This document shows, piece by piece, positions 6,006-28,835 of a stretch of DNA of 64,000 nt. The stretch lies in the NCBI GenBank assembly GCA_051715345.1, contig JBPXJQ010000040.1:92-64091 (forward strand), given 5' to 3'. The notes under the pieces are model-generated. The model was not told the origin of the DNA, made no database searches, and was given only the letters and a program-made list of their open reading frames with translations. The stretch is from Candidatus Blackallbacteria bacterium. GTDB lineage: Bacteria > Cyanobacteriota > Sericytochromatia > UBA7694. Position 1 is the stretch's first letter; each line of letters starts with the position of its first letter. The translations under genes and the position numbers were made by a program.

Positions 6006-6857
6006 TTAAGCAACTTTTCGCTGCTCGAACTGCTCTGGGCTGAGATAGCCCAAAGTTGAATGAAGTCTTTGCCGATTGTAAAAAACCTCAATATACTCGA
6101 AAATTGTGCTGGAGGCCTCTTTCCGAGACTCAAACACTCTATCACAACATTCCAGTTTTAGAGTGCCAAAAAACGACTCAGAACACGCATTGTCATAACA
6201 ATTCCCCTTTCTGCTCATACTTTGAGCCATTCCATAGCCCTTCAAATGCTCTTGAAACGATTGCGAAGCATATTGTGAACCACGATCTGAATGAAACAAC
6301 AGCCCCGGCTCTATACTTCTGCGTTGCAGAGCCATATCCATAGCGCTTGTGACCAGCTCTGTTTCCATTGTTTGAGACATACTCCAACCAACCACTTTTC
6401 GAGAACTCAAATCCAGTACAATAGCCAAATAAAGCCAGCCTTCACGAGTTGGAATGTACGTTATATCTCCAGCCCAGACACGGTTCATGTCCATAACTTG
6501 AAACTGGCGGTTCAAGAGATTTTCAGCCACTGGCCGTGAATGGTTTGAATCTGTTGTGCTTACTCGCTTTCGCTTCAATTTTGCTCTGAGATTGTTCTCT
6601 CGCATAATCCGAGCCACTCGATTGTGCCCCACAAAGTAGCCTTGTTGCCGCAAACTGGCTGTAATACGAGGGCTTCCGTAGCATTTACGGCCTTGGTCAT
6701 AGATTTCTTTTACCTTGGTCAGCAAAAACGAATTTTCCTGAACGCGTTTGCCAGGTAAACGTTTTAAATGACGGTAAAAGCCACTCTTACTAACTTCTAG
6801 CAATTCTGTCATGCGTTGCACCTTAAATTGCTTGGTATGGTCTGAAATCCACTTCAT
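6006..6857 (-). CDS. IS3-family transposase OrfB (DDE integrase core)
   Basis: YGSPRI, WAGDITYI, LDLSSRKVVGW, FHSDRGSQY, GNCYDNACSESFF, YNRQRLHSTLGYLSP. Confidence 0.95.
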   Translation of the reverse strand: MKWISDHTKQFKVQRMTELLEVSKSGFYRHLKRLPGKRVQENSFLLTKVKEIYDQGRKCYGSPRITASLRQQGYFVGHNRVARIMRENNLRAKLKRKRVSTTDSNHSRPVAENLLNRQFQVMDMNRVWAGDITYIPTREGWLYLAIVLDLSSRKVVGWSMSQTMETELVTSAMDMALQRRSIEPGLLFHSDRGSQYASQSFQEHLKGYGMAQSMSRKGNCYDNACSESFFGTLKLECCDRVFESRKEASSTIFEYIEVFYNRQRLHSTLGYLSPEQFEQRKVA

Positions 6858-7196
6858 ACGTACTTGTGATTCTTCTGGGAGAAGATCTCTAAGGCTTTTT
6901 TTGCCTCAGTTGTTGGCGACAGAGGAGCCTTACAACTGTGGACCGCATAGCGCTATTTCCCTATCCTCCTTAAGGTTGGCGTTTTCTCGGCGCAACCGGG
7001 CCAATTCAGCTTCTTGGGCGGTCATATTGCCATTGCCTCTAAAAGCCTCTTCTCCAGATTGTTTCTGCTCTTGGCGCCATCGGTATACCATGTTTGATGG
7101 AATCCCAAGACTTCTTGCGGCCTGGGCACCACCCACTTGCTCTGCAAGGGCCAAGGCTTCCAGTTTAAATTCTTTACTGTATTTTTTATTTGCCAT
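6854..7196 (-). pseudogene. IS3 OrfA, disrupted by a 49-bp insertion (premature stop at 6930)
   Basis: KYSKEFKLEAL HTH and ELARLRRENANLKEDREI zipper. The expected tail KKALEIFSQKNHKYV* resumes out of frame after the insert. Confidence 0.8.
6903..6951. repeat. 49-bp hairpin repeat element, copy inside IS3
   Basis: GCCT-CAGTT-GTTGGCG-ACAGAGGAG-CCTTAC-AACTG-TGGACCGCATAGC; matches copies at 26694-26858. Confidence 0.8.
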
Positions 7197-24844: not shown

Positions 24845-26238
24845 TGTTCAATTACTTAAAAAGAGTGGGCAGGCCTGGTGCATTGCTCTTGGCAGCGCTG
24901 GCGCTTTCGTCAGGTCTCGGTCTTTCCAGCTGCCAGGGTGTGGCTCTGCGTGCTCCCTCACTGGCCCCCACCCGAACCACCGCTGCCGCTGTCAGACAGA
25001 ACGCCGCCCAAGCCAATGCCTCGCTCTATCCCCAAACCACACTGACCCGCGACGATGAGGCTTTTCTCGAAGATCTCTCGCGGCGTTCCTTTCGCTATTT
25101 TCTCGAACAGGCAGATCCCAAAACCGGACTGGTGCTGGACCGCGCCCACACCGATGGCAGCACAAATGGCGAGCGGATTGCCAGCACTGCGGCCACAGGT
25201 TTTGGCCTAACAGCCCTGTGTATTGCCGCTGAACGCGGTTGGATTCAGCCCAGCACAGCCCGTGAGAGGGTGGTCAATACCCTGACATTTTTGCTCAAGC
25301 GTGTGCCACATCAGCACGGCTGGATGCCCCATTTTATCGACCAGGTGACCGGCGAACGGCGTTGGCAAAGTGAATATTCATCGATCGACACGGCTCTGTT
25401 GTTGGCCGGGGTCTTGAGTGCCCGTGGCTATTTTCAGCACGATGCTGAAATTGTGGCACTGGCCACCCAATTGTATCAGCGCGTGGATTTTAAGTGGATG
25501 CTCAATGGCCATGCCGGTCTGCTTTCCCATGGTTGGAGCCCTGAGCAGGGGTTTATTCCCACCCGCTGGGATACCTACAGCGAACATCTGATCCTGCAAA
25601 TGCTGGGTTTGGGCTCTCCCACCCACGCTTTGCCGCCCAGTGCCTGGCAAAGCTGGCAGCGCACGGGTCTGAGCTATGGGGGCTATACCTATCTCAACGC
25701 GGGCCCGCTGTTTACGCATCAATTTTCTCACAGCTGGCTGGACCTGCGCCATTTGCACGACTCTGTCCCGCCTTACACAGATTTTTTCGCCAATTCGGTC
25801 AAAGCCACCCGGGCCCATAAGGCCTTTAATCTGAGTTTGGCCCCCGAATTTCCGGGTTACAGTGATACGATTTGGGGCATTACCGCCTCCGACAGCGCCA
25901 AAGGTTATGTGGCCTGGGGAGGTCCTCCGCGCACGCCTGAAATTGATGGCACGGTGGTTCCCTGTGCCGCTGGCGGCTCGTTGATGTTCTCACCCGAAAT
26001 CACGATCCCAGCCCTGCGGGCCATGGCTGCTCGCTATGGTGCCAAAATCTATGGCCGCTACAGTTTCAGCGATGCCTTTAATCCCAATACCGGCTGGGTC
26101 AACCCTGATGTGATTGGCATTGACCTGGGGGTGACTTTGTTGAGTGCCGAAAACTTGCGCACAGGCCATGTTTGGAAGTGGTTTATGCGCAATCCAGAAA
26201 TAGCAAAAGCGTATCAGGCGGCGGGATTGACCCGTTGA
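24844..26238 (+). CDS. Glucoamylase-like / GH144 (DUF3131) lipoprotein, putative beta-1,2-glucanase
   Basis: TGLVLDR, STAATGFGL, SSIDTALL, PLFTHQFSH, WGITASD, IGIDLG. Confidence 0.85.
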   Translation: MFNYLKRVGRPGALLLAALALSSGLGLSSCQGVALRAPSLAPTRTTAAAVRQNAAQANASLYPQTTLTRDDEAFLEDLSRRSFRYFLEQADPKTGLVLDRAHTDGSTNGERIASTAATGFGLTALCIAAERGWIQPSTARERVVNTLTFLLKRVPHQHGWMPHFIDQVTGERRWQSEYSSIDTALLLAGVLSARGYFQHDAEIVALATQLYQRVDFKWMLNGHAGLLSHGWSPEQGFIPTRWDTYSEHLILQMLGLGSPTHALPPSAWQSWQRTGLSYGGYTYLNAGPLFTHQFSHSWLDLRHLHDSVPPYTDFFANSVKATRAHKAFNLSLAPEFPGYSDTIWGITASDSAKGYVAWGGPPRTPEIDGTVVPCAAGGSLMFSPEITIPALRAMAARYGAKIYGRYSFSDAFNPNTGWVNPDVIGIDLGVTLLSAENLRTGHVWKWFMRNPEIAKAYQAAGLTR

Positions 26239-26335
26239 ATGTCCTGGCTCAAAGGCCTTAGTTAGTGAGGCGTTGAGGCACTTAGGCCTTAAATCTATGA
26301 TGGATCAGTTCTGAAGGGTGGGGCAATCTGCTCCG

Positions 26336-26473
26336 GTTGGCGCAAGGCTCTGAAGTTCGGGCCGCTCACTGCGCACATCCATGTGCTGCGCTCGCTAATG
26401 CGCGACCCGCGTCGGATCCATCCGTGGGCCACGGGCCGCGCAATTGCCCTCTTTTTTCAGAGCCTTGGCCAAC
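26336..26473. repeat. MITE/REP-like unit A
   Basis: Ends GTTGGCGCAAGGCTCTGAA ... TTCAGAGCCTTGGCCAAC; internal hairpins. Confidence 0.65.
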
Positions 26474-26591
26474 GGAATGAATTGTCTTTGGTTTTTTTGC
26501 CTACAGGTTTTTGATTTTTTTTGGTTTTGGAATAGGTTGAGGGATTTGTCAAACCATCAAAGTGACCTAGCCCCATTTGAGTGGTCACCCC

Positions 26592-26939
26592 GTTGGCTCA
26601 GGCCCTGAAAAGTGAAGGCAACAGGAACCCCGCCGGTCCAGGATGGACAAAGGCGGGGTGACTCTTAAGCGCTTCTTACAGAGCCAAAGGCGAGCTTTGG
26701 CTGTTGGCGACAAGCCTTGGCTGTTGACGAGGAACGAGTTTTACAGCCAAGGACAGCATTGCTAGGAGCCTTACAGCCATAGACAGCATTGCTGTATAGA
26801 AGGCGCTTGCCTGAGCCGTTGGCGGCTTTGCCGACTTTACGGCTTAGGACAGCATAGATACTTAGCACCGCAGGTGCTGTAGCGAATGGAGCACACGATG
26901 TGCGAAATGAGCGGCCTGAACTTCAGGGCCTTGTGCCAA
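26592..26939. repeat. MITE/REP-like unit B, inverted relative to A and expanded by nested 49-50 bp hairpin elements
   Basis: Ends GTTGGCTCAGGCCCTGAA ... TTCAGGGCCTTGTGCCAA; 26880-26939 is a near reverse complement of 26337-26397; hairpin copies at 26694-26792 (outer), 26714-26762 (inner) and 26809-26858. Confidence 0.7.
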
Positions 26940-27116
26940 GAGAAGCTATCCACCCATTTTGGGTTTTGTTCTTCGATCCGCGCTCTTAAGATGCAAAGGT
27001 TTTGCCTAAACCGAAAACCAACCCCCTAAAACCTATCACCCCATCCCCCCTTGGGTCGGCTGGTATAATAAAAAGGTAATCAGACAAAAAAGTCTGGACG
27101 ACCAAAGGAGAAGACC

Positions 27117-28835
27117 ATGGGCAACCTCACCGTTTCCAATGAACTGTATTTAAGCGGGTTAGATGCCCTGCTTCAGGGTCAGGCGCCTGTGGCTCTGCGC
27201 GCCCCCCACGGCAACGAATTGCACTGCAAGGGCTGGATACAAGAAGCCGCCTTGCGCATGCTGCTGAATAACCTCGATGCCGAAGTGGCCGAAAAGCCGG
27301 AAGAACTGCTGGTCTACGGTGGCAGCGGCAAAGCGGCCCGCAATTGGGAGAGCCTGCGTCAGATTGTCAAAACCCTGATGAATCTCGAAAACGACGAAAC
27401 CCTTTTGGTGCAGTCGGGCAAACCTGTGGGCGTGTTTAAATCCCACCCCGATGCCCCCCGTGTCTTGATCGCCAATTCCAATTTGGTGCCCCATTGGGCG
27501 ACCTGGGAAAAATTCCGCGAATTGGAAGCACTCGGCCTAATGATGTACGGCCAGATGACGGCAGGAAGCTGGATATACATTGGCACCCAGGGCATTTTGC
27601 AGGGCACCTACGAAACCTTCAGGGCTGTGGCCGAAAAACATTTTCATGGCAGCCTCGAAGGCCGTCTCTGTGTGACCGCCGGTCTCGGAGGCATGGGCGG
27701 CGCTCAGCCCCTGGCGATCAAAATGAACGGCGGTGTGGCCCTCTGTATCGAGGTCGACCGCAAACGGATCGAACGCCGGATGGAAACACGCTACCTGGAC
27801 CAATGGTATGAAGACGTAAATACTGCGATCGACCAGGCCATCGAAGCCAAACGCAATGGTTGGGCCCGCTCGATAGGTGTGCTGGGCAACGCCGCCGAAA
27901 TTTTGCCTGAACTTGTCAATCAGGGGATTGTGCCTGATGTGGTCACCGACCAGACCAGTGCCCACGATCCGCTCAATGGCTATGTGCCTGCTGAATACAG
28001 CCTGCAAGATGCCGAACACCTGCGCAGGGCCGATCCCGAGCATTATATAAAGTTGTCGATGCACTCGATGGTGCGCCATGTCGAAGCGATGATCACCCTG
28101 CAAACCCGTGGTTCAGTGGTCTTTGACTATGGCAATAATATCCGCCAACAGGCCTTTAACCGTGGCTTGGAAAGGGCTTTCGCCTTTCCGGGCTTTGTGC
28201 CCGCGTATATTCGCCCGCTGTTCTGTGAGGGCAAAGGCCCCTTCCGCTGGGCAGCGCTTTCGGGCAATCCCGAAGACATCTTCCGCATCGACGAGCTGAT
28301 TCTCGATGAATTTGCCTATGACGAAGGCCTGATCAAATGGATTCACCTGGCCCAGGATCAGGTTGCCTTCCAAGGTCTGCCCGCCCGCATCTGCTGGCTG
28401 GGTTATGGGGAACGGGCCCGTTTGGGCAAACGCATCAACGACCTTGTCGCCAGTGGCGAAGTCTCGGCCCCGATTGTGATTGGCCGCGACCACCTGGACT
28501 GTGGTTCGGTGGCTTCGCCCAACCGCGAAACCGAAGCCATGTTGGACGGCAGTGACGCCGTTTCCGATTGGGTCTTTCTCAATGCCATGATCAACGCCGT
28601 GGGCGGCGCCTCTTGGGTCTCGATCCACCATGGCGGTGGGGTCGGAATTGGCTATTCCCAACACGCAGGCATGGTGATTGTGGCTGATGGCAGCAAAGAA
28701 GCCGAAGCCCGATTGGAGCGGGTCTTAACCAGTGATCCAGGCATGGGCATTATTCGCCATGTCGATGCCGGTTATCCCGAAGCCGAAGCCGCCGCGCGCC
28801 ATCATGGGGTGCGCATCCCGATGTGGGAACAATAA
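27117..28835 (+). CDS. hutU: Urocanate hydratase
   Basis: [60 protein letters not shown]. Confidence 0.98.

Follow-up and report, generated by a model that had tools for sequence, protein, structure and literature searches.

How does the intergenic spacer upstream of a hutU gene come to hold hairpin repeats set inside the loops of other hairpin repeats? The question is raised by a 64-kb window, by which we mean the whole stretch of 64,000 nt analyzed. The spacer measures 878 nt, from the end of the upstream gene at 26238 to the start of hutU at 27117 (boundaries from open reading frames), and a BLAST search of 26200-27100 against the whole assembly resolves it into a mosaic of dispersed repeats. 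We coined the names X for a MITE-like repeat, Y for a 64-nt hairpin repeat and H for a hairpin element of 49-51 nt. G000 denotes the genome carrying the window, G000:C17 and the like denote contigs, and G002 to G005 are genomes of the same genus. Three H copies in identical orientation occupy 26694-26858, the inner one within the apical loop of the outer one; the initial annotation had described this nest, with a third copy at 26809-26858 in the same direction, and the sequence bears it out. The nesting has four levels, X containing Y, Y containing the outer H and the outer H containing the inner one, while the third H lies in the 3' arm of Y. The best explanation overall, to which we give a probability of about 0.7 with the involvement of a Y1 transposase in trans included, is that miniature non-coding mobile elements have nested here to a depth of four levels. 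As to its smallest component, H is very probably a precisely inserting miniature mobile element. The segments between 26585 and 26946, all on the plus strand, are as follows.

26585..26663 (+), left part of X, the outermost shell; joined to 26878-26916 in the paralog G000:C56 72909-72994
26664..26693 (+), 5' arm of Y and its loop as far as GGCGA; Y is free of H in G000:C3 and in the G003 and G004 orthologs
26694..26713 (+), 5' stem arm and first loop half of the outer H; with 26764-26792 it makes a full H matching G000:C53 98865-98913
26714..26763 (+), inner H (49 nt and a 3' T) in the apical loop of the outer H; covariance model score 67.6 bits
26764..26792 (+), second loop half, 3' stem arm and tail GACAGCATTGC of the outer H; partial nhmmer match
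26793..26808 (+), remaining loop and 3' stem arm (TGTATAGAAGGCGCTT) of Y; seen in paralogs and orthologs
26809..26859 (+), third H (50 nt and a T), in or after the 3' stem arm of Y; covariance model score 50.3 bits
26860..26877 (+), 3' tail of Y with a small second hairpin (AGCACC..GGTGCT); seen in paralogs and orthologs
26878..26946 (+), right part of X; 50-nt inverted repeat with 26330-26379; seen in paralogs

The outer H entered the Y loop between GGCGA and TG. Searches of G000 with nhmmer return 24 matches to X and seven to Y, and the covariance model recovers H copies at E-values of 1e-8 to 1e-13. A 20-nt word made of stem and tail occurs twice against 0.01 expected, which is above chance. 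Folded as single-stranded DNA, each H copy gives the expected hairpin and the 99-nt composite a hairpin in a loop, with z-scores of -2.3 to -3.9 relative to shuffles. A second complete X is found in the same spacer at 26321-26476, and its arm pairs with 26897-26946 as a 50-nt inverted repeat.

H starts with GC, followed by a 9-nt stem arm, a 'loop' of 20-21 nt (TTGGCGA-N5-GAGCCTTA), the complementary arm and the tail ACAGCATTGC, a conserved 3' end of 10 nt after which a T usually stands. The 9-bp stem varies in sequence with its pairing kept; conservation is found in the apex, TT-GGC-GA-N-NNN-N'-GA-GCC-TTA (GGCGA-N5-GAGCC). Judging from its sequence, the apex would comprise a 3-bp GGC/GCC helix, a putative tandem G.A/A.G pair, one covarying pair and a triloop. 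We aligned 21 distinct H copies from six genomes on this structure. The covarying apex pair is CG in nine copies, GC in six, AU in three and GU in one. Overall, 91.9% of cells are paired compared to 71.4% in shuffles; nine of the 13 pairs vary on both sides, the observed value is matched by none of 500 shuffles, and controls with a slid structure are 30-49% paired. The G at position 1, the C at position 2 and the GAC-G of the tail are invariant in the alignment. One copy in G005 (C8, 119875-119923) has 5' and 3' arms from different subfamilies that do not pair, and may be a recombinant or a collapsed nest. At G001:C76 13651-13808, three full copies and a truncated fourth stand head to tail with a period of 53, so that H can also make direct tandem arrays.

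Exact empty alleles exist for every level of the nest. Paralogs within G000 form a series: X is uninterrupted in C56, carries Y in C3, and carries Y with one H in the Y loop in C53; the window goes further, the loop of that H being interrupted by the inner H and the 3' stem arm of Y being followed by a third. We retrieved and aligned the spacer upstream of hutU from four same-genus genomes, a comparison with relatives that the initial annotation had proposed, and found the elements present or absent as exact blocks. G005 has X only, its left part again joining 26878-26916; G003 and G004 have X and Y with no H; G002 has a different filling. Among the genomes aligned, the three H copies are thus found in G000 alone. 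The uninterrupted H loop, seen in G000 on C53, C17, C8 and C31, reads GGCGACAA/AGGAGCC, the stroke marking the junction. Relative to such copies the inner insert spans 26714-26763, 50 nt made up of 49 nt and a 3' T; the initial annotation had its location right, and its length of 49 bp (26714-26762) is short by this T. Measured against an empty paralogous Y, the third H adds 51 nt (26809-26859 or 26808-26858); it is absent from G000:C53, from G000:C3 and from the G003 and G004 orthologs, and present in Y copies at G000:C63 and G004:C148.

A second locus displays the reciprocal pattern. At G000:C17 the H copy that we call H1 is empty (GGCGACAA/AGGAGCC) and the neighboring H2 holds a nested H after GAGCCTT; at G005:C1 and G002:C304, H1 is filled by the inner copy of the window and H2 is empty. 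Further nests are an H inside a member of a third H subfamily (G003:C176) and an H inside an H-like hairpin (G005:C17/C63), the latter with an empty counterpart at G003:C248. Metagenome contigs from four public runs, at 90% likeness, join exactly at module boundaries, with skips of 50, 51, 165 and 214 nt, and 26714-26763 is among the segments skipped; these joins are consistent with insertion, and paralogs or relatives may be their source. None of the public sequencing runs contains more than 27% of the sampled words, and the parts left uncovered are uninformative.

These alleles bear directly on a simpler history, in which local tandem duplication and divergence produced the three H copies with no insertion at all. 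The stems of the inner and outer H are nearly alike (CCTTGGCTG and CTTTGGCTG), and the head-to-tail array in G001 demonstrates that duplication of H does occur. However, the nested order A1-A1'-A2'-A2 is impossible to obtain from one tandem duplication, the exact empty alleles at every level contradict it, a second locus has this inner copy in this host too, and H interrupts unrelated genes as well. We consider this history extremely improbable. The initial annotation had named tandem duplication with no empty sites as the pattern that would overturn its reading, and the empty alleles are there. Its proposal of repeated, precise insertion with no long target duplication is upheld by the same comparisons, in orthologs as in G000 paralogs: no bases are duplicated at any exact junction between filled and empty alleles. 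Target-site duplication, which together with terminal inverted repeats marks a classical MITE, is thus lacking at all exact H junctions.

The insertions need not have taken place at this locus. H may be mobile in general and a composite Y, already bearing the outer, inner and third H, may have replaced a plain Y here by gene conversion. Composites do exist elsewhere: Y with H1 and the third H at G004:C148, and Y with H1 and the inner copy at G005:C1 and G002:C304. At G000:C63, the 3' half of Y with the third H is 95% identical over 83 nt. Furthermore, a manual count finds about eight differences in 64 positions between the Y of the window and the orthologous Y of G004, including a compensatory change in the stem, and fewer in the flanks. 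On the other hand, no single donor with the exact combination of H1, inner copy and third H was found in the genomes searched, and gene conversion leaves the first origin of the composite unexplained. We regard such a replacement as possible rather than probable; it alters where the insertions occurred, not whether they occurred. The history of the inner copy raises a related point. It has four matches at 67.6 bits, and the three inspected (the window, G005:C1 and G002:C304) represent two loci and one and the same host copy. Its insertion may thus have been one old event, the composite spreading afterwards. The initial annotation had inferred a unit of 49 bp from identical insert lengths at two independent sites; the unit ranges from 49 to 51 nt, and the two sites, where the inner copy is seen solely inside the same host copy, may trace to a single event.

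Insertion into genes is illustrated by the IS3-family element of the window, whose parts are the following.

6006-7196 (-), IS3-family element with orfA (88 aa) and orfB (283 aa)
6903..6951 (+, the IS genes being on the minus strand), H in orfA, just 5' of the A AAA AAA G slippery site

This H had been taken as borne by the IS; the copy exists, and it is inserted into orfA rather than being part of the IS. A 66%-identical IS3 of G003 has no H and reads uninterrupted through ...IILKKALAIFSQKK. In G004:C40 and G002:C19 a 51-nt version of H is read through in frame, as REI-CAMRSSVVRLINSPTTK-AKKALEIFSQ, immediately 5' of the frameshift heptamer. The H of the window, at 49 nt, is two bases shorter than these, and its orfA terminates early. 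No H-free copy of this same IS3 family was found, the G004 and G002 copies both carrying H. IS3 is a target of H and not its source.

A strong association exists with tnpB genes of the IS200/IS605 type, in or beside which H is about 90-fold enriched. Across the twelve family genomes, 27 of 150 listed H matches fall within 800 nt of an OrfB_IS605 domain (Pfam), compared to about 0.2% of the DNA, and an H is close to 22 of 69 tnpB domain matches. Since copies of one IS are not independent, we also counted distinct insertion sites. Ten such sites lie within tnpB coding sequence; eight hold an insert that keeps the frame and has no stop, and two hold one that is out of frame. The in-frame inserts measure 45, 48 or 51 nt; APVVGVGTSRTNGDSIA is one of their translations. 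G000 has a single Y1 transposase gene, located in an IS605 on C62, where tnpA is paired with a tnpB that is split by a 50-nt H; the empty site, GGATAT/TTTGTAC, is seen in 91%-identical IS copies of G004, G005 and G003. The IS605 copies at G004:C4 and G005:C52 gained a net 45 nt from another H, whose insertion site stands empty in G000 and G003. Full IS605 copies with H in tnpB exist, and H occurs in both orientations within tnpB and relative to host genes generally.

Some tnpB sites are occupied across genera: G007 and G011 share one before TAPxAFH, and G004, G005 and G007 share one between PTRK and KPSQTC. Either inheritance or repeated insertion may explain them. At G007:C162 9300-9820, a single tnpB contains four sense-oriented H copies, each from a different stem subfamily; three of them are in frame. 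A solo tnpB on the minus strand of G003:C248 (1851-3365) retains an open frame of 504 residues that takes in three H copies and, at the 5' end, an H-like hairpin; the 3'-most H-like hairpin of this gene recurs in five other tnpB loci of G003 and G005. The sole inverted pair of H copies (G005:C59/C56) also lies inside a tnpB. Two further ideas were abandoned. Ribosomal bypass of a 50-nt gap was dropped, since H occurs in both orientations and most inserts are plainly in frame. Templating of the H stem by its target was suggested by a second GCTCCAG found behind one tnpB insert, a repeat that is missing from the site's two other copies.

What, then, does H recognize? Its known locations are IS genes (IS3 orfA, IS200/IS605 tnpB) and other small hairpin repeats, of which it occupies unpaired loops or arms. 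A search for a target preference, as the initial annotation had proposed, gave the following: among 39 listed copies, partly non-independent, A or T precedes H in 35 and T follows it in 33. No longer target word, and no conserved target of 4-5 nt 5' of H, appears in these 39 copies. The 3' T was already present in the target at the Y loop and in the C62 tnpB, and was added at both H loops. Insert lengths at the junctions vary among 45, 48, 49, 50 and 51 nt.

The covariance model finds 14 H copies in G000. Of the 12 other genomes of the same Candidatus Sericytochromatia family, 11 have H, with 1-34 copies each, and the remaining one, with no match, is 66% complete. Many matches lie at contig ends, so that true copy numbers are probably higher. 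No H was found by the model in 28 genomes of neighboring families of the same order or class.

These observations may be accommodated by a mechanism in which single-stranded H, folded on itself, is the mobile form. An IS200/IS605-type Y1 (HUH) transposase, working in trans, would excise H and paste it into transiently single-stranded DNA, such as hairpin loops, replication forks and excised IS605 circles. Single-strand cut-and-paste by Y1 (HUH) enzymes is known for IS200/IS605. H fits this scheme by its hairpin, its fixed 5' end, its 3' end 10 nt past the stem foot and its insertion with no duplication, as well as by its preference for unpaired loops and its association with IS605. Single-stranded landing targets would account for both the nesting and the enrichment in tnpB, and in-frame copies in IS genes would persist because only still-working IS copies keep multiplying. 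The asymmetry of H between strands fits too, since the opposite strand would have C.T in place of the G.A pairs. The composite of the window may have been built in place, or recombined in from a Y copy already bearing it. Passages in two articles propose movement of the Y1 type for REPs (PMC3733652, PMC6006769).

We hold the Y1 model tentatively, at somewhat less than even odds. A Y1 transposase is present in 11 of the 12 other family genomes; however, G006 (91% complete) has five H copies and no Y1 match, and Y1 genes occur in 12 of the 28 genomes in which no H is found. The ends of the resident IS605 (CTACCAAAT... and ...GTAGTTCAT), compared by eye in four copies, show no likeness to H, and no conserved target of 4-5 nt precedes H, unlike IS608-type insertion. 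In f9, a more distant family with related motifs, we found six weak Y1 (RAYT-like) loci, none of them flanked by motif matches; one weak match lies 1.4 kb away. The variable junction lengths and a T that is either added or shared are unexpected under clean cut-and-paste. The presence of both H orientations in tnpB and the low copy number, 14 in G000, also speak against our overall explanation, and evidence from the genomes examined ties no particular enzyme to H.

Variable junctions, with inserts of 45-51 nt and a 3' T added or shared, would fit elements copied via RNA or through template switching at replication, for instance by nick-primed reverse transcription or microhomology-mediated copy-in. 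The lack of a conserved target word agrees with such copying. The constant 5' GC and constant tail, however, point to defined cleavage, and we find this route unlikely.

H could also be mainly a functional structured RNA or protein-binding hairpin, such as a 3'-UTR stabilizer, a terminator or a tnpB regulator, kept by selection and spread by recombination. The strong covariation and the conserved apex fit a functional hairpin, the hairpin is kept in copies at the same tnpB site across genera, and on G000:C17 arrays of Y and H follow stop codons in the direction of the genes. The same apex also occurs in a repeat of about 90 nt in f9, at other places in f9 and in two viral contigs. However, Rfam 15 yields no match at E <= 1 within 25500-28000, H may run with or against its host genes, genes are interrupted by it and in some cases broken, and its pattern of presence and absence is that of mobile DNA. 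The cover of the region by RNA-library contigs is incapable of showing transcription. We judge a mainly functional hairpin quite unlikely, and retain mobile DNA as the preferred reading of H.

In behavior, H resembles several known families of small repeats. REPs, BIMEs and REPINs are likewise short, hairpin-forming dispersed repeats, mostly intergenic and present or absent among strains, and REPs and REPINs, like H, are thought to move as single strands with no target duplication. Yet H fails the defining tests for REPs and REPINs. It has no GTAG/CGTC at the stem foot, the 21 aligned copies starting with 5' GC and continuing after the 3' foot with GACAGC (reverse GCTGTC). The apex of H is conserved and the stem variable, the reverse of REPs, and copy number is low (1-34 per genome). 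H occurs singly, nested or in direct arrays, whereas REPINs are inverted doublets. Unlike in RAYT/REPtron systems, no Y1 gene is flanked by H, and the lone Y1 gene of G000 is part of an IS605 in which tnpB is itself a target. REPs have been reported inside other palindromes and inside genes, according to passages in two sources (PMC3733652, PMC3116915).

H and the IS200/IS605 elements with their PATE derivatives share the absence of target duplication, hairpin dependence and a strand-specific structure, and H is physically associated with IS605. They differ in that H is one hairpin in place of separate left and right ends, has no conserved target tetranucleotide and bears no likeness to the ends of the resident IS605. 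RPEs (Rickettsia palindromic elements) are longer than H, about 100-150 bp, and lie in housekeeping genes, whereas H lies mainly in transposase genes and other repeats. They are described in part of one article as palindromic, ending in CGTC and lying in frame inside probably working ORFs (PMC3733652). H is likewise in frame and open at eight of ten tnpB sites and in the IS3 orfA of G004 and G002; the IS3 copy of the window and the C62 tnpB copy of G000 are not.

Elhai et al. reportedly found in 2008 that the small dispersed repeats (SDRs) of Nostocaceae, 21-27 nt long, are nested in one another, in MITEs and in ISs. Like H, these are very small mobile repeats of the cyanobacterial phylum; H differs by its 49-51 nt and its two-tier hairpin. 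SDR5 may insert at HIP1, and SDRs are reported as confined to Nostocaceae in a portion of PMC5861425. Nesting itself is therefore not new in kind, REPs in palindromes and genes and in-frame RPEs being already published. Our literature search found no earlier description of repeats in Sericytochromatia, which is not proof of absence. As far as this literature goes, the H family in an uncultured, non-photosynthetic cyanobacterial lineage, its architecture of conserved apex and variable stem, and its mostly in-frame association with tnpB appear to be new.

The way in which the smallest bacterial repeats move is still largely unsettled, and the H family provides clean material for this problem: alleles with and without the insert, exact at several nesting levels; a hairpin recognizable by covariation rather than sequence; and a strong link to tnpB that can be counted and that suggests an enzyme open to testing as well as targets that are single-stranded. 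TnpB is the ancestor of the Cas12 nuclease, and its tolerance of inserts of 15-17 residues at defined positions is relevant to protein engineering. For annotation, H accounts for scrambled-looking intergenic regions and IS genes, and for assembly breaks, in this lineage.

We may also hypothesize that H is a parasite of parasites, using the Y1 enzyme of IS200/IS605 and landing preferentially in its single-stranded transposition intermediates, with some inserts co-opted and an apex that docks a conserved protein. Although we think it rather unlikely, this scenario would imply that tnpB gathers in-frame inserts of 15-17 residues at recurrent sites, and that these inserts are retained because the IS has put the hairpin or the peptide to use, perhaps in expressing tnpB or in processing guide RNA. 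The apex common to f9 repeats and viral contigs would then be the docking site of the conserved protein.

Among 150 genomes sampled evenly from the phylum, f9 is the one other family with matches to the H model, in 14 of 51 genomes and with weaker scores. The f9 genomes are of about 2 Mb, and in one of them, G144, the apex lies within the dispersed repeat of about 90 nt, with 13 model matches. GGCGA-N5-GAGCC with a flanking stem also occurs elsewhere in f9 (G144, G148, G119). Rfam gives chance-level matches only for these related loci. A strict pattern scan of a contig collection, in which records near this genome are perhaps absent, gave no locus. Five pattern matches were obtained in IMG/VR: three are at chance level, and two, at 54 and 32 bits, qualify as complete H-like hairpins. 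The two contigs concerned, L171 and L170, are GC-rich, and their full H-like hairpins have a GACAGCA tail. One of the IMG/VR hairpins is located directly upstream of a gene with lysozyme-like first residues, the sole part on which this resemblance was judged.
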